From NCBI GenBank assembly GCA_043825875.1, contig JBDRRF010000109.1, forward strand, positions 1 to 64,000: 64,000 nt of DNA, given 5' to 3'. The translations under genes and the position numbers were made by a program. Source of the stretch: Pseudomonadota bacterium. GTDB taxonomy: Bacteria; Desulfobacterota; Desulfobacteria; Desulfobacterales; RPRI01. The notes below the pieces were generated by a model. It saw only the letters and a program-made list of their open reading frames with translations. It made no database searches and was not told the DNA's origin. This document shows positions 36,617-54,396 of the stretch, one piece after another. The number at the start of each line of letters is the position of its first letter. Positions within the stretch are counted from its first letter, which is position 1.

Positions 36617-38791
36617 ATGAAAATTAAAATTATTGCCACCGCAATCGTTATCTTTTCCATTGTGATACTTTCAGTCATTATTATAACCAACCGGAACAAA
36701 CATATCCTGTATTTATCTAATGGGGAAATAATAGAAGTTACCAAAATCTGGGAAGGCTTGGGTGATATCTATTATGAGCAGGAAAACGGATCGCTCAGTA
36801 TATTAAAAGAGGATGAAGTTGACAAAATCGTAAGTACTTCTTTAAACAGTCTCAAAGGCTGGAAAATAGTTCTTACCCGTGAGATAGAATTAAAAAGGGG
36901 AATTTTTGAAATACTATTGGACAAGAATTTATGGATTGGGTGCTTGCTTGCTTTTTGTTTGTATTGTGCGGGTGTATTTGTCGATAAACTCATAACTCGA
37001 ATTAGGAAAAGAAAAAAAGTTAAAACAAAGGATGAAAACGAGCTGATTATAATTACCCCTGGGCCACATGATAGTGAGATGAGAAAGATCATTCTTTATT
37101 TTCTAAGTCTTTACCTGTTGCATATTGGAGCGAAAAAAGATGATAGATTCCAATATAAGCGGTTAAATATCACGGGACATGGAAAAACAGTAGTCTATGA
37201 TCTTAGAATATTTCATGATGACAAGTGGGTATTCAGACGAATGTCATTAGGGCGCATTGGAGAAGATAGCGGGGCCAGAAGCAAATGTTTTTATGTTATT
37301 TATGATGACCATATTGTGATAAAAATTCCACCGGAGCCGATCAAAGATTTTGATCAATACATTAACTGTATTAAAGCAGATAAGCGAATCGCCGACCTGC
37401 TCGCCCCGCGTGAGTGCCTGATCCCAAAGGTGTCTACTGTTCTTAAAAGAATCCCTTCATTTGCAGATGCCATTGGAAGATATGCTAAAGAAAATGAACA
37501 AGTATGTATTGACGGGCTAAACAGGTTTCCCAAGTTTCAACAATATCTCAAAATAGGGGAAAATTTCACCTTTTTTATGGATCTTTCAAAGCATTATTTT
37601 CTGGGGCTTGTTTTAGATGAATTGCATGATGTGTATAATAAATTCTCAAAAGAGTTAAAAGAACATCAGGGCATTATTTGGGATTCCGACTTATTTGAAG
37701 AAAGGTATGGTGAAAAAGCCTCAAACCTCTGCATCAATCTTCAACACGTCTTTAAAGTGTTTGAAAATAAATTTATAAATACTGATATCCAACCCTATCA
37801 AAAAAAAGATTGGTTTTCAGGTTTTCTTTGCACAGGGGAAACCGATTCCAAACAAAAGAATATTCCCAGCGAAGCAGCAGAAATATTAAAGCAGGTAAAA
37901 AATGAACATAAAGACACATTTGCCGAGTATGAAACGGTTATTAAAAATTATGTACAGGAAAAATCATTCCAGCATAATAAAACTCAGATACAATGTATAT
38001 GTACGAATCTTATTGAATTGTTGTCTTGGTTACACATTAAAAAAGTAGCCATGCGCGACCTTAAACCGGATAACCTGATTGTTGTAGGTGATCCCTCAAA
38101 ATATCCCCAATTTTTGAAATCATCAGACGAATTCCACATTGGACTTATAGATGTTGAAACAGCAGCTTATATCAACCCCAAAGAGGGACAAATAGAACAG
38201 CCCAAATTAGGTCTGACCCCAATTTATGCTACACCCTCCCATATGCTGATTAATGAAATTCTAGGGGTTTTATATGCGGATCCCATTCATATTCTGCAAT
38301 TGCAGGACTGGCAGGCAATTGTGGGGATGATTTATAAATCTGTTACTGGCGAACACCTGTTTTACCGGGCAGCCGGAACCATTGGCGCAATTACAAAAGA
38401 AATACCCTGTTATTTTGACGACATTCCCAAATTGGTTGAATTTTCAATGAGTGCAAGCGCAAGGTTCTGGAAAGATGCTTCCAATGAGTTTGTTTTAAAA
38501 ATGCAAAATAAGCAAAAGCTTTTAAAATCAGTTAACTTGGAAATTTGTACGAACGCAGAACAAATGTTCAAAATTGCAGCTGCCAAATCAAGAAATAAAA
38601 ATATCCAAAAGAAGTTGCTGGATATAAAATCCAATATTTCGGCGTATGAATTGCTCGATGGTATGTTTTCTCATTTGCATGAAATGATGTGCAAAAAGTA
38701 TTGGGAGCCTTACGCAAAAATGGAAGAATTGAAAGTTAAAGAAAAGACTTTAACTTTGGCACAATCAAAAGTCTGGGCCCAACGAGTGTAA
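36617..38791 (+). CDS. membrane-anchored protein-kinase-like protein
   Basis: Two hydrophobic N-terminal segments, HIVIKIP, MRDLKPDNL catalytic loop, IDVE and GLTPIYATP. Confidence 0.7.
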   Translation: MKIKIIATAIVIFSIVILSVIIITNRNKHILYLSNGEIIEVTKIWEGLGDIYYEQENGSLSILKEDEVDKIVSTSLNSLKGWKIVLTREIELKRGIFEILLDKNLWIGCLLAFCLYCAGVFVDKLITRIRKRKKVKTKDENELIIITPGPHDSEMRKIILYFLSLYLLHIGAKKDDRFQYKRLNITGHGKTVVYDLRIFHDDKWVFRRMSLGRIGEDSGARSKCFYVIYDDHIVIKIPPEPIKDFDQYINCIKADKRIADLLAPRECLIPKVSTVLKRIPSFADAIGRYAKENEQVCIDGLNRFPKFQQYLKIGENFTFFMDLSKHYFLGLVLDELHDVYNKFSKELKEHQGIIWDSDLFEERYGEKASNLCINLQHVFKVFENKFINTDIQPYQKKDWFSGFLCTGETDSKQKNIPSEAAEILKQVKNEHKDTFAEYETVIKNYVQEKSFQHNKTQIQCICTNLIELLSWLHIKKVAMRDLKPDNLIVVGDPSKYPQFLKSSDEFHIGLIDVETAAYINPKEGQIEQPKLGLTPIYATPSHMLINEILGVLYADPIHILQLQDWQAIVGMIYKSVTGEHLFYRAAGTIGAITKEIPCYFDDIPKLVEFSMSASARFWKDASNEFVLKMQNKQKLLKSVNLEICTNAEQMFKIAAAKSRNKNIQKKLLDIKSNISAYELLDGMFSHLHEMMCKKYWEPYAKMEELKVKEKTLTLAQSKVWAQRV

Positions 38792-44313: not shown

Positions 44314-44324
44314 CAGTTATTCGC

Positions 44325-44374
44325 TGCTAACGTGTGGCTGAGGAGCGGCGGATATGCCGTCAACTCCAGCCGGT
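44325..44374 (-). other. attC site interrupted by a IIC intron
   Basis: TGCTAAC-GTGTGGCTGAGGAGCGGC...GCCGTCAACTCCAGCCGGT, followed directly by the intron 5' end. Confidence 0.7.
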
Positions 44375-44600
44375 GTATGCCCTGCATGGGCGTGAACTTA
44401 TGGGGTGAAAGTCCCCTGTGTGTAAATCCTGTTAATTGTTAATTTCATTAGCATAAACATTAGCTGAAGGCAAGGGCGGAATCGTGAGGTTTTGTCTGAA
44501 CGCGGAGCGAACCGGAAGGTGAACCGAAGGCGAAAGCGACTGAACGGAGCGGCCAACCCTAAGTGCAAAGCTATGAGCCGACGAACAGAAACAAGGTAAA
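44375..44600 (+). mobile_element. 5' fragment (domain I) of a group IIC intron, antisense to the cassettes
   Basis: GTATGCCCTGCATGGGCG...GGGGTGAAAGTCCCC resembles the IIC 5' consensus GUGYGCCCGGCAUGGG...GUGARAGUCCC; truncated, with no IEP. Confidence 0.75.
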
Positions 44601-45263: not shown

Positions 45264-46907
45264 TCAGTCTTTAAAAGGTGATTCAATCATTTCAAACGGG
45301 TCATAATGATGACCACGGCCTACTCTTAATGAACCCCATATTTCGCCTATAGTTGCATATTCTTTACAGGCTTCTATCATGGTTGGAGTAAGATTGACAT
45401 TTCCCTGCTTGTCTTCTTCTGCCAGTTTTTTCATTAATTCTTTTACAGCATTATTATTTCTCTTCTTTTTTATATCTCTTACTCTCTGAACCTGTTCGGC
45501 AGTCGAAGCTTTAGATACCACATGAATAGGAATTTTATGGTCTTGTTCAGGTGGAACCACCAAATCATTAATTCCTATAAGTTTCATGGTTCCACTTTCT
45601 ATATCTGTCTGACGCTTTAATGCCGCTTCATCTATCATTGCCCTTATCCATCCGTCTTTAACTCCTTCTTCCAGACCTCCCTTGTCAAGTATCTTCTGAA
45701 GAAGTTCCCATGACCTCTTTTCTACCTCGTTTGTAAGCCACTCAACATAGTAAGATCCGGCAAGAGGATCAACTACATTGGCAATTCCGGTTTCATAAGC
45801 AAGGATATTTTGCGTACACATTGCAATCCTGGTTGCAATTTCCGTAGGAAGACATAAAGGCTCATCGTACATTACAGGATCAATGGCATTACAGCCGCCA
45901 AGGGCAGCAGACATAAGCTGTACTGCAATTCGCCCTATGTTGTTAAGAGGCTGCTGGGCTATAGCTGTAAGTCCGGATACCCGTGCTGCGATATAAAGCT
46001 TTTGTGCTCTCGGATTCTTGGAACCGTATCTTTCTCTTGCTATTTTTGCCCATATTCTTCTGGATGCCCTGAATTTCGCAATTTCTTCAAAAAAATCCAT
46101 CCATATTGTAAAAGTAAAAGGAACCCTGTTTGCAAATTCGTCAAAATTTAATCCGCGCTCTACAAGCCGGTCGGCAAATGCTATTGTGGAAGCAAACCCC
46201 AGTGCTGTTTCCATAACAGCTGGCGTCCCTTCTTCTGAAACATTGTGTGCGCTTGTATGAAATGTTGCAAATCTTAATTTATTTTTCGAACAGTATTCGA
46301 CTACATCAACAGCAAGTTTGGACCATAAATCCAGAGGCTGAGGGGTAACAAAGCCGCTGTAGTACTGGCAATATAAATTAAGAGCCGCACCGCCGTTTAA
46401 GGCAGAATAAGGAACGCCCTGCTTTTGGGCCATAGCAAAAAACATACAGGGCAATACCGGGCCGCTTGCCCCTGATGATTCGAAAGTGATTGTTGTTTTG
46501 TCAATAGGAAAGCCTTCTAAAATGGTTTCAACATCATCTAATGAGGATACCGGTATGCCAACCAAACCGGCTTCATCCACTGCCATAGGATGGTCAGCAT
46601 CAATTCCGACCTGAGTGGGGTAATCATTTACAACCTCAACTCCTTCCGATCCTATGCTGGCCAGATACTTCAGTCTTTCCATGGAATCTTTTGCCGAACC
46701 GAATCCTGAAAGAAATCTCCTTGTCCAAATCTTGTTTCTAAACATTCCCTTATATAAACCTCTTGTATAAGGGTATTCCCCGGCTTCACCGAGATCCCTG
46801 TCATAATCAAAATCTTTTAAGTCTTCGGGCTTATACATCTCTTTTAATGGTATACCTGAAGCCGACTCGAACTTCCTGTTTGCGTCTTCCTGAATCGTTG
46901 TTTTCAT
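45264..46907 (-). CDS. B12-dependent acyl-CoA mutase, substrate-binding subunit (divergent)
   Basis: SGIPLK, GEYPYTRG, DFFEEIAKFRA, YDEPL, DPLAGSYYVE and ATIGEI motifs; specificity residues differ from those of MCM. Confidence 0.9.
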   Translation of the reverse strand: MKTTIQEDANRKFESASGIPLKEMYKPEDLKDFDYDRDLGEAGEYPYTRGLYKGMFRNKIWTRRFLSGFGSAKDSMERLKYLASIGSEGVEVVNDYPTQVGIDADHPMAVDEAGLVGIPVSSLDDVETILEGFPIDKTTITFESSGASGPVLPCMFFAMAQKQGVPYSALNGGAALNLYCQYYSGFVTPQPLDLWSKLAVDVVEYCSKNKLRFATFHTSAHNVSEEGTPAVMETALGFASTIAFADRLVERGLNFDEFANRVPFTFTIWMDFFEEIAKFRASRRIWAKIARERYGSKNPRAQKLYIAARVSGLTAIAQQPLNNIGRIAVQLMSAALGGCNAIDPVMYDEPLCLPTEIATRIAMCTQNILAYETGIANVVDPLAGSYYVEWLTNEVEKRSWELLQKILDKGGLEEGVKDGWIRAMIDEAALKRQTDIESGTMKLIGINDLVVPPEQDHKIPIHVVSKASTAEQVQRVRDIKKKRNNNAVKELMKKLAEEDKQGNVNLTPTMIEACKEYATIGEIWGSLRVGRGHHYDPFEMIESPFKD

Positions 46908-47338
46908 ATTTGCTTCTCCCTGACAGGATTTAAATCCCTTTTGCTTTTCTTTTCAACAAGGGATGTAATTGTTTCTACTATTACATTAGACATTGCTCCG
47001 GGCCCGATAACTGCGTCAACACCCAGTGCCTTTAGTTCATCAGGAAAAGGATCCGGAATGGTTCCGCCTACAATTACTACAACATTGTCCATTCCCTCTT
47101 TTTTCAACATATCAATTAACTTGGGAACTAGTCTGGTATGATTTGATGACTGACAGCTTATACCAACAACATCTGCATCTTCTTCTACAACGGCCTTAAA
47201 AATTGATTCGGGACTTTGAAATCTTCCAAGATATACCACTTCCATACCGGCATCACGCAACATTGCGCTTACAATTTTGGCTCCTACATCGTGCCCGTCA
47301 AGACCAATTTTTGAAATTACTGCTTTTATCTGCTTCAT
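46904..47338 (-). CDS. cobalamin-binding subunit of the acyl-CoA mutase
   Basis: GLDGHDVGAK (DxHxxG), DVVGIS and VGGTIP motifs; overlaps the large-subunit start by 4 nt. Confidence 0.92.
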   Translation of the reverse strand: MKQIKAVISKIGLDGHDVGAKIVSAMLRDAGMEVVYLGRFQSPESIFKAVVEEDADVVGISCQSSNHTRLVPKLIDMLKKEGMDNVVVIVGGTIPDPFPDELKALGVDAVIGPGAMSNVIVETITSLVEKKSKRDLNPVREKQI

Positions 47339-47374
47339 GAGATACTTCCTCTTTGCATTAGATTATAGGCAATA

Positions 47375-47427
47375 TTGAAGCTCCCCGAGGCCAAGCATCG
47401 GGGAGTGCGCTCGTTGTTGCTGTTCAA
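47375..47427. repeat. intergenic palindrome (REP/IS200-IS605-end-like)
   Basis: TTGAAG-CTCCCCGA-GGCCAAGCA-TCGGGGAG...TTCAA. Confidence 0.45.
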
Positions 47428-47447
47428 CTCACCTGCCGTTTACTTTT

Positions 47448-48641
47448 TTATTTAGGTTCCGTTCCAAAAATATTAACCAATGCAACGGCTCCGGTTCCCC
47501 CAAGGTTATGCGTAAGGCCTATTTTCGGATCCTTGACCTGGCGTTTACCGGCTTCACCACGTAATTGCCAGAATATCTCGCATGCCTGGGCTACTCCTGT
47601 GGCTCCTATGGGATGACCCTTTGATTTTAATCCTCCGCTTACATTGCAGGGTATTTCACCGTCTATCATAGGCCCGCCGTTTTCTATCCATTGACCACCC
47701 TTACCACGCTCACAAAATCCAAGGTCTTCGTAATCTATTAATTCCGTGCAGGTAAAACAGTCATGTATTTCGGCTACATCTATGTCTTTGGGCGAAATAT
47801 CGGCTATCTCGTATGCGGTTTTACTGGCTACTGTTGTTGTATCCCATTGGTGATAATGCCGTTTCTGGTGCCCGTAAAAATCATCGCAGGCAAGGGCACT
47901 GCTCCAAAGATATATCGGCTTGTCGGTATATTCCTTGGCTATATCTTCTCTGGTCAATATAATTGCTGCTGCACCATCAGTTGTCGGGCAACAATCAAAC
48001 AGCCCTAAGGGCCAGCTTATCATCGGAGCATTCATTACCTGTTCCATGGTTACTTCAAACTGAAAATGGGCATACGGATCAAGAGTTCCGTTGTGATGAT
48101 TCTTTACCGCAATCATTGCAAAATGTTCTTTCTTTGTTCCGTATTTTGCCATATGGGCTACACCGAATTGCCCGTACATCGCAGGCCCTGTCAGTCCTCT
48201 GGGATGCCACCACTGATGATATGAGGTATTGGCTTGGCCTATCATGGATTCGCGACCGGGAATGTCTCTCATCTTCTCGGCGCCTACTACAAGTACTACA
48301 TCATATACTCCGGCTTTAATGGCAAAAGCTGCCTGACGTATAGCATCACTGCCGGTACAACAGGCGTTTTCCACCCTGCTTACAGGTTTATCATAAAATG
48401 TGAGTGCATTGGAAAGGGTGGCTCCGCTTACTATTTCTTTTCTCAAGCTTGTTCCGGGTAAACAACATCCGAACCATGCAGCTTCAATCGCATCTTCTTT
48501 TATTCCCTTGTCAACGCTTTTTAAGCAATTCTCATATGATTCAAATATCATGTCTTCTAAGCTCTTTTCAAAAAGCTCTCCGAAACGAATCATGCCAGCG
48601 CCTACCACTGCTACATTTAAAGGAATCTTTTTACGCGCCAT
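47448..48641 (-). CDS. SCP2-type/archaeal-type thiolase (PhlC/AcaB-like)
   Basis: ENACCTG, HDCF, GHPIGATG and HNLGG (no C-terminal Cys). Confidence 0.88.
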   Translation of the reverse strand: MARKKIPLNVAVVGAGMIRFGELFEKSLEDMIFESYENCLKSVDKGIKEDAIEAAWFGCCLPGTSLRKEIVSGATLSNALTFYDKPVSRVENACCTGSDAIRQAAFAIKAGVYDVVLVVGAEKMRDIPGRESMIGQANTSYHQWWHPRGLTGPAMYGQFGVAHMAKYGTKKEHFAMIAVKNHHNGTLDPYAHFQFEVTMEQVMNAPMISWPLGLFDCCPTTDGAAAIILTREDIAKEYTDKPIYLWSSALACDDFYGHQKRHYHQWDTTTVASKTAYEIADISPKDIDVAEIHDCFTCTELIDYEDLGFCERGKGGQWIENGGPMIDGEIPCNVSGGLKSKGHPIGATGVAQACEIFWQLRGEAGKRQVKDPKIGLTHNLGGTGAVALVNIFGTEPK

Positions 48642-48645
48642 ATCA

Positions 48646-50130
48646 TCACCCCCCTGCTTTTTCGTCTATAAGCCTGAACTTATATCCGTATTTTACGATA
48701 TCGTTTTCCATGCCATGCCGCCTTAAAACAAGTTCGACCTTTGCCCCTACTTTTACTTTCTCCATAGGGCTATCTACCATCATGGCGGATATTTTGCCGC
48801 CGTATTCTCCCTGTTTTCCGGCTACCCTTGCTATGCACATTGGAAATGGCGCTTGTTCAGGATCCAGATAAACTATAAACTGATGAAAAAACGTTTCGAT
48901 TACTCCCTTGCGGGGTAACGGAACTTTCTCAAACTCACGGCTCCTGCAATCTTTCTCAACGCATATGTTTCGCTTTGGAAAATTTATGGACCCGCACTTG
49001 GTGCATTTTAAAGCCTTCAGACCAAACACAAAATCTTTATCACGCCAAAATAAAGGAGAAGAATCAACAGAAGACATTGGTTCCGGAAGGGCCAGGCCTT
49101 TTAGTCTCCCCTTAATTTTTTCGTACTGAATATATTCTATGTATTGCTTATAATCCTCCTTAAAATAATTCTGCACAGGCGATATATGCCCTCTTTTTTC
49201 ATCTATCCCCTTTGTTGCAGTAACAAGAAAAGCATCGCTTCCTGCACCCGATCCGTAAGAAGCCACAAGTATCTTCTCATCAGGCTTGGCATTATCCAGG
49301 CCAGCTGCAAGAGCTATTAAGGATGAAGCTGAACCGGTGTCTCCTGTCATCGGGGAAAGAGCAGTAACACTTAGTGCTTCAGGTTTAAACTTCATAGACT
49401 TTGCCACATCTGCCGGGCTCTTTCCATCCGGCTGGGAAACTGCCAGATATGAAATATCTTCAGGCTTAAGTTTTGTTTCGGTTAAACATTTAACTATTGC
49501 CTGTCTTATGTGAGCAAAATAACCCGCAGTTCTGTGAAAACGGGCATCATCATAGAAATTGGTATAATCTTTTTTTGCCATACGCCAGGTTGTATTTAAA
49601 GATGTTGATTGGGCTACGCCGCTTCCAAGTTCTGCAATTACATCACTTGCACCTAAAATAAAAACCGCCGCCCCTGCGCCATATGCCGTTTCCAGCTGGG
49701 TTCCCATTTCTGCTACCTGGCAATCTGCTCCAATAGCCATGCCATACTTAGTCTTTCCTGAATCAACAAGGCCGGCACACCCCAACAATGCCGCCGTACC
49801 GGCCCGAACCGATCCGCCAAAATCTGCTATTATAACATCATCGGAACCACCCAAAGCCTCGGCAATCAGAATCGCTGAAGACTTATCAATATAAGCACCC
49901 GATACGGTGCCCAAATATAATGCCCCGATATCTGATGCATCCAGCCCGGCATGTTTTAAGGCATTAAAAGAAGCTTCCACAGCCAATGTCACAATATCTT
50001 CATCTTCGCCTGCTACGCTTTTTTCTTTAACTCCGCCCGCAATTCCTCCAAACGGCCAGGCTTTAGCTATAGACTTTGTAACAATCCTCTTTCTTGGGAT
50101 TGAAACCCCATATCCAATTATACCCGCCAT
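48646..50130 (-). CDS. HMG-CoA-synthase-like (catalytic residues lost) fused to DUF35 zinc-ribbon/OB-fold
   Basis: GIIGYG, DEDIVTLAVEA, GAGA and SYGSGAGSD motifs; C-terminal CTKC...FPKRNIC...C plus OB fold ending YGYKF. Confidence 0.85.
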   Translation of the reverse strand: MAGIIGYGVSIPRKRIVTKSIAKAWPFGGIAGGVKEKSVAGEDEDIVTLAVEASFNALKHAGLDASDIGALYLGTVSGAYIDKSSAILIAEALGGSDDVIIADFGGSVRAGTAALLGCAGLVDSGKTKYGMAIGADCQVAEMGTQLETAYGAGAAVFILGASDVIAELGSGVAQSTSLNTTWRMAKKDYTNFYDDARFHRTAGYFAHIRQAIVKCLTETKLKPEDISYLAVSQPDGKSPADVAKSMKFKPEALSVTALSPMTGDTGSASSLIALAAGLDNAKPDEKILVASYGSGAGSDAFLVTATKGIDEKRGHISPVQNYFKEDYKQYIEYIQYEKIKGRLKGLALPEPMSSVDSSPLFWRDKDFVFGLKALKCTKCGSINFPKRNICVEKDCRSREFEKVPLPRKGVIETFFHQFIVYLDPEQAPFPMCIARVAGKQGEYGGKISAMMVDSPMEKVKVGAKVELVLRRHGMENDIVKYGYKFRLIDEKAGG

Positions 50131-50145
50131 AATTATACCCTCGCT

Positions 50146-51303
50146 TTAGATAGTTTTTATTTTTTTGGCAAGCTCAGCTGCTATAACCAAACGCTGTATT
50201 TCATTTGTGCCTTCGTATATCTGAAATATTTTAGCATCCCTGTAAAGTTTTTCAACCGGATATTCCTTGGAATAGCCATATCCTCCAAAGATCTGGACGG
50301 CCTGAATGGCTGCCCTTACAGCTGCATCACCGGCCATGGCTTTAGCCTGGGATGACTCCAATATAGGAAGCTTTCCCTGATCAACCAGCCATGCCGCTCT
50401 CCAGGTAAGCAGACGCGCTGCATCAATTTCCATGGACATTTCAGCTAATTTCAGTTGAATAAGCTGCTGGGCGATCAAAGGCTTGCCGAACTGAACCCTC
50501 TCGGATGCATACTTTAAAGATTCATCCAGTGCCCTTTGGCCAAGGCCCAATGCGGTAGCAGCCGCCAAAGCCCTTGACCGGTCAAGTGCTTCCATAGCCA
50601 CAACAAAACCCTGACCTTCCTTGCCCAACAAATTCTCTTCAGGTATTCTTACATCTTCCAAGATCAACTCGACCGTATGAGATGCCCGGATACCCATTTT
50701 ATCTTCTTTTTTTCCTACTTTTATTCCTGCTTCTTTGGGAACTATAAAGGCGCTCAATCCCTTGTGAGCTTTAGATGGGTCTGTTTTTGCTATAACAACA
50801 TATACTGATGCCAGATCTCCGTTTGTGATAAAGGTTTTTCGACCATTTAGCACATATTCAAAACCTTTCTTCTCAGCCCTGGTTGAAACGGCAGATACAT
50901 CCGAACCGGCTCCGGGCTCGGTTACAGCAAAAGCTACAAACTTAATCTCTTCAGATTCGCAGATTAACTTTAAATACTTTTCTTTTTGTTCCGGGGTTCC
51001 GAAAAACATTATCGGGATTACTGCTATACTGTTTAACAGCAAAGAAGTGGCAATGCCGGCGCACCCATAAGTCAAACCTTCGGCAATCAAACATGTTTCC
51101 ATCATCCCCATGCCGGCCCCGCCATATTCTTCCGGAACACCCGCATTAATCAATCCCAGTTCATGTGCCTTCTGGGCAACATCCATTGGAAGTGTCCCCA
51201 GTTTGTCATATTCGGCAGCAATAGGTATGATTTCATTTTTTACAAATTTATCAACCATATCCTTTAAGGCAACCTGTTCTTCGCTCAATTCAAAACTAAT
51301 CAT
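50146..51303 (-). CDS. acyl-CoA dehydrogenase
   Basis: FAVTEPGAGSD, KTFITNG, RVQFGKP, QIFGGYGY and IYEGTNEIQR motifs. Confidence 0.95.
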   Translation of the reverse strand: MISFELSEEQVALKDMVDKFVKNEIIPIAAEYDKLGTLPMDVAQKAHELGLINAGVPEEYGGAGMGMMETCLIAEGLTYGCAGIATSLLLNSIAVIPIMFFGTPEQKEKYLKLICESEEIKFVAFAVTEPGAGSDVSAVSTRAEKKGFEYVLNGRKTFITNGDLASVYVVIAKTDPSKAHKGLSAFIVPKEAGIKVGKKEDKMGIRASHTVELILEDVRIPEENLLGKEGQGFVVAMEALDRSRALAAATALGLGQRALDESLKYASERVQFGKPLIAQQLIQLKLAEMSMEIDAARLLTWRAAWLVDQGKLPILESSQAKAMAGDAAVRAAIQAVQIFGGYGYSKEYPVEKLYRDAKIFQIYEGTNEIQRLVIAAELAKKIKTI

Positions 51304-51362
51304 AATTCACTCCGTTTTTGCAGATGTTGTTTTGTAATCATCGGTATGAACCTATACTAATA

Positions 51363-51378
51363 AGCATAAAGCGGGCCA
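51363..51378 (-). promoter_or_regulatory. sigma54 (-24/-12) promoter of the acd operon
   Basis: Minus strand TGGCCCGCTTTATGCT = GG-N10-GC, 60 bp upstream of the acd ATG; a divergent enhancer-binding protein gene is adjacent. Confidence 0.7.
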
Positions 51379-51539
51379 ATAAATATAATAAAAATATATC
51401 AATAAGTTATATATGAGCACTTGTAAATAATTCCAATATGTTGTAATGTGCTTTCAATATATTGGAATATGTTATAAATACAATCCAATATACCGGAAAT
51501 TATTTAATTTGTATATCAGGAAATGAAAGAGTGATTGAA

Positions 51540-53090
51540 ATGAATATCAATGAGAAAGATTTTTTCCATCAGGCTACAATAAGGATTTGCGGAAATCTTG
51601 AGATAGAACAGGCGATGTTGCATACTTTTGAGTACCTGAAAGATTTTATACCACTGGATGAAATGTGGCTGATTTTGGTAGATAGAAATATAGGTACAAT
51701 AAAAACCATTGCGGGTGCAAATCATGCCGGTGCAAGAATAATGGACAGGCTTATACATGTCCCGGCGAATATAAGAAAGGAGCTTAACGAGTACGATTTT
51801 ACACCCAAAAAAATAACAATTATTAACAGGGCGGAACTTAATCCGCTTGCCTTTAATTTATTAAATGTTTTGGGTTATCCTGATTCATCTTCATTGGTTT
51901 TTTCACTGTCAACCAATACTGACAGAATAAGTGTTTTTGTTATAAGAGCCACAGGAAAAGACCGGTTTTCGGATTCACATGCACGTCTGCTTGCCATGCT
52001 TCACGACCCAATTGCAATTGCCATGTCTAATGCCTTAAAGCATGAAGAATTACTTAAACTCAAAGAAGATGACAACAGGTATCTTGCCCAGGAGCTGCGT
52101 CAATTAACCGGAGAAGAAATCATAGGTGCAGAGTCCGGATTGAAAAATGTTATGGATATGGTTCAGCAAGTGGCAATGAGAGATAATCCTGTATTGCTTT
52201 TAGGTGAAACCGGTGTTGGTAAAGAAGTAATAGCCGATGCTATTCATTATACTTCAAACCGTAAAGACGGCCCTTTTATCAAAGTCAACAGTGGTGCTAT
52301 TCCCGAACACCTTATAGACAGTGAGCTTTTTGGACATGAGAAAGGAGCATTTACCGGAGCGGTGAATCAAAAAAGAGGGCGTTTTGAAAGGGCGAATGGA
52401 GGAACAATTTTTCTTGATGAGATAGGAGACTTGCCCATTCAGGCACAAAGCCGGTTATTACGCGTTCTTCAGCAAAAAGAAATTGAGCGAGTAGGTGGTA
52501 CCAAAACTATTCTTGTTGATACCAGAATTATTGCCGCCACTCACCGTAATTTAGAACAATTGGTTTTTAATAAAAAATTCCGTGAGGATCTTTGGTACAG
52601 GCTAAGTGTTTTTCCTATCCTGATTCCACCATTAAGACAAAGAAAATCAGATATTCCTGCGCTGGTTAAGTATTTTTTGAAACGAAAATCCAAAGAAATG
52701 AATTTTCGTACTTTACCAACGGTTAAGCCCGGGGCAATTGAAAAAATGATTGAATATCCATGGAGCGGAAATGTTCGTGAACTTGAAAATGTAGTAGAAA
52801 GGGCGCTTATCCAATATAGAGGAGGGCAATTAACTTTTGAGCATTTACATTTTCATCCTGTTGAGGAAACATTGCTTCCTTCTTCTACAGATGGAAGGGT
52901 ATTAACCCTAAACGAAATCGATGCCCGCCATATCCGTTTGGTGCTTGAAACAACAAATGGAAGAATTAATGGTAAAGGAGGAGCAGCAGAACTTTTATCT
53001 ATACATCCAAATACTCTTAGGTTCAGGATGGATAAACTTGGGATCAGTTATGGGAAAAAGAATAAGCAAAATTTAAGCCATGCCAAATGA
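51540..53090 (+). CDS. sigma54-dependent activator (GAF-AAA+-HTH, FhlA-like)
   Basis: [28 protein letters not shown] and a C-terminal HTH; ATG 51540 is preferred over TTG 51462. Confidence 0.93.
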
Positions 53091-53232: not shown

Positions 53233-54396
53233 ATGCATGGGAAACCATTGAGACGCAGCTTTTGTGTGTCCCGAATCGGGAAGTACTGCAACCTTAATAT
53301 TCTACTCTGCTTTTTCTTGTTTTTTCTCTATTGCCTTTCGCCACATTGGGTTGAAGCGAACCCGGTCGTAAACACACCAGGTAATTTGCAGCCCAAAAAG
53401 CTTGTTATCGGCACCAAACAATCGCCACCCTTTGCGTTTAAGGACCAGACGGGTCAATGGAAAGGTATCAGTATCGAACTGTGGGAGGCCATTGCAAAAA
53501 ACCTTAAGTATGATTACGTTTTTAAGGAATATGATCTGCAAGGCTTACTTAATGCTGTTGAAAACAAATCCATTGATGCCGCTGTTGCCGCACTTACCAT
53601 TACTTCCGAGCGTGAAAAACGGTTTGATTTCACCCACCCTTTTCATACCAGCGGTCTTGGCATAGCAGTTTTGCAAGGCAAAGAGAATTCCTGGCTGGTT
53701 GTGTTTAACCGGTTCTTATCCCCGGCTTTTCTGGAAGTTGTTTTGGCGCTTGTCCTGTTACTGTTTGTTGTGGGACTTCTTGTCTGGTTTTTTGAAAGGA
53801 AGAAAAACCGGGAACAATTCGGCGGAAGCTTTCTGGCAGGTATTGGTTCAGGCTTCTGGTGGTCGGCGGTTACCATGACAACGGTTGGATATGGTGACAA
53901 GGCCCCGCGAACCCTCGGAGGCCGACTGGTCGGCCTCGTGTGGATGTTTATAGCCATAATTATTATTTCCAGCTTCACAGCGGCGATCACCTCAACGCTC
54001 ACGGTAAATCAGATTCAGCAACATGTCAGGGGGCCTGAAGATCTTAATCGGGTGAAAGTCGGGTCAATAAAACATTCCACCAGCGCTTCATATCTTAACA
54101 CGCAACGGATTTCTTTTCAGGATTACTCCTCCGTCATGGATGCTTTGCAAGGGCTGGAGGCCGGAGAAGTTGATGCGGTTGTTTATGATGCGCCTATATT
54201 AAGGTATCTGGTAAACCGGAAAATGCAAAACAAGATTCAAGTTTTGAACACCATTTTTGAAAAGCAACAGTACGGGATTGGCCTTCCGACAGCAAGTCCG
54301 CTAAGGGAAAAGATTAACCGGCTGGTGCCTGCGATAATAAGCGATAGAAAATGGCAGGATATTTTATTCCGCTATCTGGGAGAACCGGCTTCTTGA
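53233..54396 (+). CDS. GluR0-like amino-acid-gated K+ channel
   Basis: Periplasmic binding lobes (SPPF...ALTITSER; DAVVYDAP...QYGI) split by TM1-pore-TM2 with the WWSAVTMTTVGYGD filter. Confidence 0.88.
   Translation: MHGKPLRRSFCVSRIGKYCNLNILLCFFLFFLYCLSPHWVEANPVVNTPGNLQPKKLVIGTKQSPPFAFKDQTGQWKGISIELWEAIAKNLKYDYVFKEYDLQGLLNAVENKSIDAAVAALTITSEREKRFDFTHPFHTSGLGIAVLQGKENSWLVVFNRFLSPAFLEVVLALVLLLFVVGLLVWFFERKKNREQFGGSFLAGIGSGFWWSAVTMTTVGYGDKAPRTLGGRLVGLVWMFIAIIIISSFTAAITSTLTVNQIQQHVRGPEDLNRVKVGSIKHSTSASYLNTQRISFQDYSSVMDALQGLEAGEVDAVVYDAPILRYLVNRKMQNKIQVLNTIFEKQQYGIGLPTASPLREKINRLVPAIISDRKWQDILFRYLGEPAS

Follow-up and report, generated by a model that had tools for sequence, protein, structure and literature searches.

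In this study, we analysed a stretch of 64,000 nucleotides from a bacterium of the Desulfobacterales (contig JBDRRF010000109.1 of assembly GCA_043825875.1, positions 1 to 64,000; hereafter the window) and found in it a five-gene operon with a divergent activator gene. The operon codes for an MCAD-like acyl-CoA dehydrogenase (acd), a fusion of a catalytically dead 3-hydroxy-3-methylglutaryl-CoA (HMG-CoA) synthase-like domain with DUF35, an SCP2/archaeal-type thiolase, and both subunits of an adenosylcobalamin-dependent acyl-CoA mutase (mutS, mutL). The operon is a real, inducible-looking catabolic unit. We propose, with about even confidence, that it serves as a module for branch removal and beta-oxidation of an aromatic acyl-CoA, the mutase acting on a branched benzylic carbon. 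A narrower version, possible though doubtful, is that the mutase would be the first arylpropionyl-CoA mutase, converting 2-arylpropionyl-CoA (hydratropate type) to 3-arylpropionyl-CoA and coupled to a thiolase for aroylacetyl-CoA that is built around a dead HMG-CoA synthase. The thiolase type is already known; the mutase belongs to an uncharacterised clade and has an unstudied active site.

Gene families were assigned by agreement of Pfam, NCBIfam and PDB searches, and the six open reading frames (ORFs), their order and their coordinates agree with a preliminary description of this DNA. No characterised pathway resembles the set at high identity, the best solved relative of the mutase being 4R3U (352 bits), and the inducible route of that description, in which a remodelled acyl-CoA mutase precedes beta-oxidation, is supported as an inducible-looking catabolic unit. 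No publication on this gene set was found in the literature searched, most subscription papers being outside the search, and none of the papers among the matches listed contained '2-phenylpropionyl-CoA' or 'hydratropic'. The source genome is G000 in a panel of 17 genomes of its genus, and C-numbers denote its contigs.

A mutase with a remodelled active site

The large subunit (MutL, 547 amino acids, 45264..46907, reverse strand) matches PF01642 and TIGR00641, with 4R3U as best PDB entry. The B12-binding small subunit (MutS, 144 amino acids, 46904..47338, reverse strand) matches PF02310 and TIGR00640 and contains DGHDVG, an intact DxHxxG motif. The PF01642 barrel, the DxHxxG of the B12 subunit and E370 place the pair in the adenosylcobalamin-dependent acyl-CoA mutase superfamily. 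HcmA (4R3U) was also matched in a fold search (34%, TM 0.81), and an AlphaFold model of the large subunit, made with a 14-row alignment (pLDDT 70.8), supported the mutase fold.

For numbering of active-site positions, the canonical methylmalonyl-CoA mutase (MCM) on contig C48 served as ruler, with the usual numbering and roles of the contact positions. MutL then reads L89, E114, A197, G207, H243, N244, E247, Y326, A328, R330, D364, V366 and E370, so that the positions of Y243, H244, R326, Q330 and N366 are changed. MCM itself was rejected as an assignment, as Y89, Q197, R207 and H244 read L, A, G and N; without Y89 and R207, a malonyl/succinyl substrate pair is unlikely. ICM and HCM were rejected as well: their signature (F/I89, Q197, Q207, Y243, H244) is absent, and the IcmF model scored 152 bits against a cut-off of 1500. 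HcmAB, MCM, ICM/IcmF and pivalyl-CoA mutase share with the pair the two-subunit layout, the TIM-barrel, E247/E370 and DxHxxG, whereas nearly all specificity residues differ and the pair falls into a separate tree clade. Judged by signature, the mutase is of an uncharacterised clade that is neither MCM, ICM nor HCM.

This clade comprised 8 of 56 rows in a quick version of the tree (SH-aLRT 100). Close relatives at 60% identity or above were found in 7 clusters, the rest of the 120 clusters listed being at 44% or below, and 2 were among the best 150 representatives. The 69 aligned relatives showed 63 different active-site signatures, with E370 kept in 67; going by these signatures, active-site remodelling is the rule in this mutase branch, which lessens the surprise. 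To our knowledge, the specificities of only few acyl-CoA mutases are known. One further genome (G022) contains six mutase large subunits, mostly with non-canonical signatures.

Loss of mutase activity, with the large subunit being a radical eliminase or inactive, would agree with the changes at all five positions named above (H244, Y243, Q330, N366, R326). We consider it extremely unlikely: E370 is kept in this protein as in nearly all of the aligned rows, E247 and DxHxxG are intact, the fold matches that of mutases at the TM value given, and two mutase copies have been kept alike in the genome.

The preliminary description had proposed rearrangement of a bulky or quaternary acyl-CoA. A mutase of the pivalyl type, acting on a hydrocarbon-derived acyl-CoA to remove its quaternary or branched carbon, would fit Leu at the Y89 position and the small residue at the Q197 position, which resemble the signature of pivalyl-CoA mutase (Leu at 89, Asn at 197); within the clade, position 197 is Ala or His. 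A further locus (L045), which pairs an ICM-type mutase with an acyl-CoA dehydrogenase and an unfused triad, also agrees with it. Leu is the commonest residue at position 89 in the divergent rows (15 of 69), so this is weak evidence. Quaternary acyl-CoA substrates give beta-methyl products, which are handled by carboxylase/lyase steps rather than by a thiolase. With the gene contexts described below, which point to aromatic or bicyclic substrates, this aliphatic function is quite unlikely.

Acyl-CoA dehydrogenase and the iaa lower route

The acd product (385 amino acids, 50146..51303, reverse strand) has human MCAD as best solved relative (391 bits) and carries YEG with the catalytic Glu. According to the sections of PMC8360864 used here, YEG is the motif of straight-chain enzymes, alpha-substituted substrates are mostly paired with GEG, GDG, LEG or VEG dehydrogenases, and the decarboxylating IaaF class has GGG. 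Because the enzyme is MCAD-like and has YEG, its substrate is expected to be unbranched, and it likely introduces a 2,3-double bond into an unbranched arm in the ordinary way.

Similar to the lower route of anaerobic indoleacetate (iaa) degradation in Aromatoleum aromaticum (IaaL, IaaGH, IaaF), a split B12 mutase would be followed by an acyl-CoA dehydrogenase and by beta-oxidation to aroyl-CoA (PMC8360864, same sections). Membership in the iaa pathway was rejected, as IaaF has GGG and decarboxylates malonyl-CoA compounds, whereas the dehydrogenase here has YEG. In addition, the mutase is without the carboxylate-binding Y89/R207 and the operon is without a CoA transferase. Judged by its genes, the operon works like the iaa lower route and is not a member of it.

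A thiolase next to a dead HMG-CoA synthase-like fusion

The fusion protein (494 amino acids, 48646..50130, reverse strand) matches 6ESQ_I, PhlA and DUF35. Its N-terminal part scored 195 bits with the archaeal HMG-CoA synthase 6ESQ_I and 149 bits with PhlA, and in the alignment to 6ESQ_I the catalytic E, C and H of HMG-CoA synthase (HMGS) are replaced by V/S, V and S. The C-terminal part is a four-Cys DUF35 (zinc-ribbon/OB), and the fusion is predicted to be a scaffold of the thiolase. The thiolase (397 amino acids, 47448..48641, reverse strand; PRK06064 over cut-off) scored 256 bits with archaeal 6ESQ_A and 109 bits with PhlC. It retains the catalytic Cys (ENACC), HDCF (residue 293), GHP and HNLGG.

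This layout, a fused dead HMGS-DUF35 and a thiolase with Cys, HDxF and GHx, is that of PfACAT/HMGS-DUF35 of Pseudomonas fluorescens, in which, by the parts of PMC12960953 consulted, a tetrad-less fusion is combined with a thiolase that cleaves acetoacetyl-CoA and makes no HMG-CoA. The comparison was made by layout and motifs; the P. fluorescens locus is minimal and has no pathway in those parts of the paper, whereas here a mutase and a dehydrogenase stand alongside. Since motifs and dead HMGS match this type, fusion and thiolase are most simply read as a thiolase, of a known and common kind. The same paper, from 2026, counts 1,030 bacterial triad loci and calls this thiolase type not yet recruited to a pathway.

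The preliminary description had expected PhlABC/AcaABC-like chemistry, which the motifs do not bear out. The three-part architecture is the same as in 6ESQ and in PhlABC/MucABC (5M3K, 9VBO). An archaeal thiolase/HMGS (AcaABC) function was rejected by the missing E, C and H; unlike in 6ESQ, the HMGS is dead and fused, so that no HMG-CoA synthesis is expected. An acylase of the PhlABC/MucABC type was rejected too: loss of the HMGS tetrad fits, but the thiolase retains HDCF, while PhlC and MucB are without HDxF, the acylase criterion in the consulted parts of PMC12960953. The reading as a PhlABC-like C-acyltransferase, by which an aryl ketone would be made or cleaved by Friedel-Crafts chemistry, is supported by the dead HMGS and the DUF35 part, which PhlA/PhlB also have. 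It is very unlikely given HDCF, the low score of PhlC next to that of the archaeal thiolase, and the neighbourhood, as no polyketide synthase or nonribosomal peptide synthetase (PKS/NRPS) gene is among the ORFs of window 38000-60000. BbsAB (7PXP), which releases aroyl-CoA, shares the SCP2-type thiolase, the DUF35 partner and HDxF; it differs in that BbsA is a free DUF35 protein without HMGS domain, and the thiolase reached only 170 bits with 7PXP and 180 in NCBIfam against a cut-off of 750.

Of 401 genomes of the phylum, 133 gave a match to the fusion profile (E 1e-60 or better, a few of the hits being unfused), while the specific fusion orthologue is rare: with 4 candidates per genome scored, it was found in 4 of 401 genomes of the class. 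A metagenome scan with the fusion alignment returned the catalytic-type HMGS motif in 80 of 80 loci, and a plasmid search gave 3 records, at 28%. Another fusion-thiolase pair, only distantly related (31% and 38%) and with no mutase, lies at G000:C106:6279-8934 and is conserved in G008, G011, G013 and G016. In G001-G005, G007 and G010, a 30% fusion homologue lies within an open frame of 913-965 amino acids, which may be a triple fusion with the thiolase as one of its parts.

Gene contexts pointing to aromatic substrates

In G016, fusion and thiolase genes (87-92% identical) are located between the amidohydrolase and the PaaK-like ligase of an island like that on contig C51. The C51 island (G000:C51:138045-161883) comprises an ApcD-like HydB with fused gamma domain, HydA, the amidohydrolase, the PaaK-like ligase, four class-I-benzoyl-CoA-reductase (BCR)-like genes, a U32 pair, MeaB and a third mutase (G89/C197/W207) whose B12 subunit reads DAHEVS. 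No remnant of the thiolase pair was found in the amidohydrolase-ligase gap of C51 in G000. HydB of C51 has 729 amino acids including the gamma domain, in contrast to 564 for IaaC as given in the available part of PMC8453981, a further difference from iaa. A second HydA/HydB+gamma pair, 94-97% alike, lies outside the island at G000:C75:17844-22162, and G008 and G011 also have two copies.

The acd gene of G016 (92%) follows the gene for a flavoprotein that, among solved structures, is closest to 2-naphthoyl-CoA reductase (NCR; 373 bits). In G011, the operon adjoins a 4-hydroxybenzoyl-CoA-reductase (4-HBCR)-like molybdenum enzyme, which scored below cut-off. The gene order on contig C111 is thn-like, as compared with the accessible part of PMC6849830.

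A function on rings would also suit the NCR-like and thn-like genes of these genomes. Here the mutase would act on a partly reduced bicyclic ring and transfer the CoA-ester from one ring carbon to its neighbour (tetralin-1- to tetralin-2-carboxyl-CoA type); the thiolase would open a cyclic 2-substituted 3-oxoacyl-CoA. Such 2-substituted 3-oxoacyl-CoA compounds are substrates of BbsAB-type thiolases in the consulted parts of PMC12960953. The YEG/MCAD type of the dehydrogenase points to an unbranched C2, the alpha-substituted substrates mostly going with GEG, GDG, LEG and VEG (PMC8360864, sections as above), and the ring function is unlikely. The aliphatic function meets two further difficulties here: the displaced modules land in aromatic contexts, and both glycyl radical enzymes found are PFL2/dehydratase-like. 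A fumarate-addition feeder (the 1-arylethylsuccinate route) was not supported either, the same two enzymes having PFL2/dehydratase models as their best matches, below cut-off.

Two related loci were noted. At G000:C92:566-4689, an amidohydrolase gene 84% like that of C51 occurs with two ORFs of ~405 amino acids, the starts of which resemble those of dihydroorotate-dehydrogenase-type flavoproteins. A similar ORF follows a BCR-like set at G000 C110:60800-66460.

Proposed pathway

All of the reactions below, and the aromatic character of the substrate, are inferred from the genes, motifs and neighbourhoods observed. The mutase would transfer the CoA-thioester away from a branched carbon, probably a benzylic one, onto the methyl carbon next to it (Ar-CH(CH3)-CO-CoA to Ar-CH2-CH2-CO-CoA), and this unbranched product fits the dehydrogenase because the latter is MCAD-like with YEG. 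The dehydrogenase would then form the 2,3-enoyl-CoA via the YEG glutamate without decarboxylation, and a hydratase and a 3-hydroxyacyl-CoA dehydrogenase would be supplied by other loci. The thiolase complex would cleave aroylacetyl-CoA to aroyl-CoA and acetyl-CoA, which would enter aryl-CoA reductase routes of the host. The same thiolase would serve the carboxylase-like/CoA-ligase island on C51, so that two routes would converge on aroylacetyl-CoA: aryl methyl ketone via carboxylase and ligase, and 2-arylpropionyl-CoA via mutase and beta-oxidation. Induction would come from the divergent activator acting at the sigma54 promoter.

If the arylpropionyl-CoA mutase version is true, it would be a general way for anaerobes past alpha-methyl-blocked aromatic side chains and would give a physiological job to the widespread dead-HMGS/DUF35 thiolases, a type that lacks an assigned pathway in the consulted parts of PMC12960953. 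Both profen drugs and the product of skatole ring opening have the 2-arylpropionyl skeleton. In favour of the proposal, a 2-arylpropionate, alpha-methyl-2-aminobenzeneacetic acid, has been reported from anaerobic skatole breakdown (PMC11957808), though nothing ties the operon to skatole. An aryl-branched acyl-CoA mutase would fill a gap in the anaerobic breakdown of alkyl-aromatic and heteroaromatic compounds and would be a useful biocatalyst, and the locus is a compact test case, with a single promoter, a single activator and partner enzymes that limit the possible chemistry.

Distribution of the modules and points against the proposal

The five-gene order was found in 3 of the 17 genus genomes (G000, G008, G011), the fusion orthologue in 4 and the mutase clade in 5 (one copy broken), while 0 of 24 other families sampled had the clade. 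An acd orthologue was found in 3 of 5 genomes searched besides G000, and the same 4 of the 17 genomes carry all three modules. The gene set recurs in relatives, with its five-gene order conserved only narrowly.

G000 also has a second mutS-mutL pair, 95% identical, which stands alone at G000:C23:22551-24814 between tatD and a MoxR/VWA-like pair. The same tatD/MoxR site holds a mutase pair in G008, G011 and G016, and a broken one in L004 (Desulfobacterium sp. N47); the stand-alone copies share a GG-N10-GC motif of their own. Mutase DNA is 90.4-91.4% identical between the copies within a genome and 85.0% between the same sites of G000 and G011, with neighbouring genes at 85-90%. Concerted evolution within genomes is the simplest reading of the two copies.

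More widely, 49 fusion loci (40 + 9) were examined, picked by score and sequence length and thus non-random, some being only 3-4 kb long. A mutase gene is present in 11 of the 49 and absent from 38. It is nearby in 9 of 14 loci with a fusion identity of at least 35% and in 2 of 35 below; family f77 alone supplies 12 of these 14 loci, leaving about three lineages in effect. A triad beside a mutase is therefore not unique. The partner mutases fall on different tree branches, which suggests that the fusion-mutase pairing has been recruited repeatedly. In L045, the ICM-type mutase and dehydrogenase accompany an unfused triad with active HMGS. The f77 cluster (L131/L134/L150/L152) has a mutase, two enoyl-CoA hydratases, four dehydrogenases, mutS, a 49% fusion and a 64% thiolase, and P0125 (64% fusion) shows the order ECH-SDR-fusion-thiolase-ACAD-ligase, a full beta-oxidation set.

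Several observations weigh against a branch-removal module for aromatic acyl-CoA. Mutase activity itself is inferred, since several adenosyl- and substrate-contact positions (Y243, H244, Q330, N366) are changed. The operon contains no hydratase, hydroxyacyl-CoA dehydrogenase, ligase or MeaB gene. In G016 (87% complete), the three modules lie at three separate loci, so the order is not fixed; co-occurrence is weak evidence, the four genomes being close kin; and a 95% identical mutase pair stands by itself in G000 and relatives. No aromatic marker was seen in the f77 cluster, whose mutase is of a different branch, and P0006 (62% mutase) adjoins transport-like genes and no thiolase. A genome rich in aromatic genes might by itself explain the aromatic neighbours.

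The separated modules in G016, the promoter motif of the stand-alone mutase copies and the 38 of 49 loci without mutase would also agree with a mosaic regulon, in which three modules act on different substrates under a common inducer and form no single chain. This has a low probability in our estimate, as a single promoter and short gaps are found in 3 genomes, the modules are co-distributed, and a mutase is enriched near the closer fusions (9 of 14 versus 2 of 35, with the dominance of one family noted above).

Operon layout, promoter and activator

The gaps between acd, fusion, thiolase and mutS are 15, 4 and 109 bp, and mutS and mutL overlap by 4 bp. The tight spacing first described is confirmed for the 15-bp and 4-bp gaps and the overlap, and does not apply between thiolase and mutS. 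No clear terminator was found 3' of the mutase genes. A sigma54-type -24/-12 motif (GG-N10-GC), TGGCCCGCTTTATGC, lies at 51364..51378 (reverse strand), ~60 bp before acd. By itself, the motif is not beyond chance: the window has 2 matches versus a shuffle mean of 1.0, and 26 of 100 shuffles reach 2. Nevertheless, it is preserved before acd in G008 and also in G011, in which the DNA between motif and acd differs. Three imperfect 16-bp palindromes (starts 51431, 51452 and 51483; 51431..51498) sit 50-120 bp upstream as candidate activator binding sites and recur in G008 and G011, with 1-3 mismatches in the window, 1-3 in G008 and 3-4 in G011. Genome-wide, 10 palindrome matches with at most 2 mismatches were found, of which 2 are at this locus.

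The divergent gene (51462..53090, forward strand; PF00158, PF02954) codes for a GAF-AAA+-HTH activator with Walker A/B, GAFTGA and HTH, as in sigma54 enhancer-binding proteins. Its GAF domain, described earlier from the translation, is weak in Pfam (E 0.07, under the cut-off) and strong in the Atlas feature search (0.98 to GAF clusters). Translation probably starts at ATG 51540, which corresponds to the start of its paralogues. G000 has 9 activator paralogues at 50-78% identity (contigs C69, C38, C74, C70, C89, C14, C41, C28); two of these adjoin 4-HBCR-like molybdenum enzymes and one a URO-D/methyltransferase-like gene.

Directly past the activator, a GluR0-like ligand-gated ion channel gene follows (window 53233-54396). 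Downstream of the operon, a short GC-richer stretch (window 44320-44600) is present, which resembles a group II intron RNA fragment. Further away, window 36617-38791 encodes a membrane protein of 724 amino acids with a kinase-like motif seen in translation.

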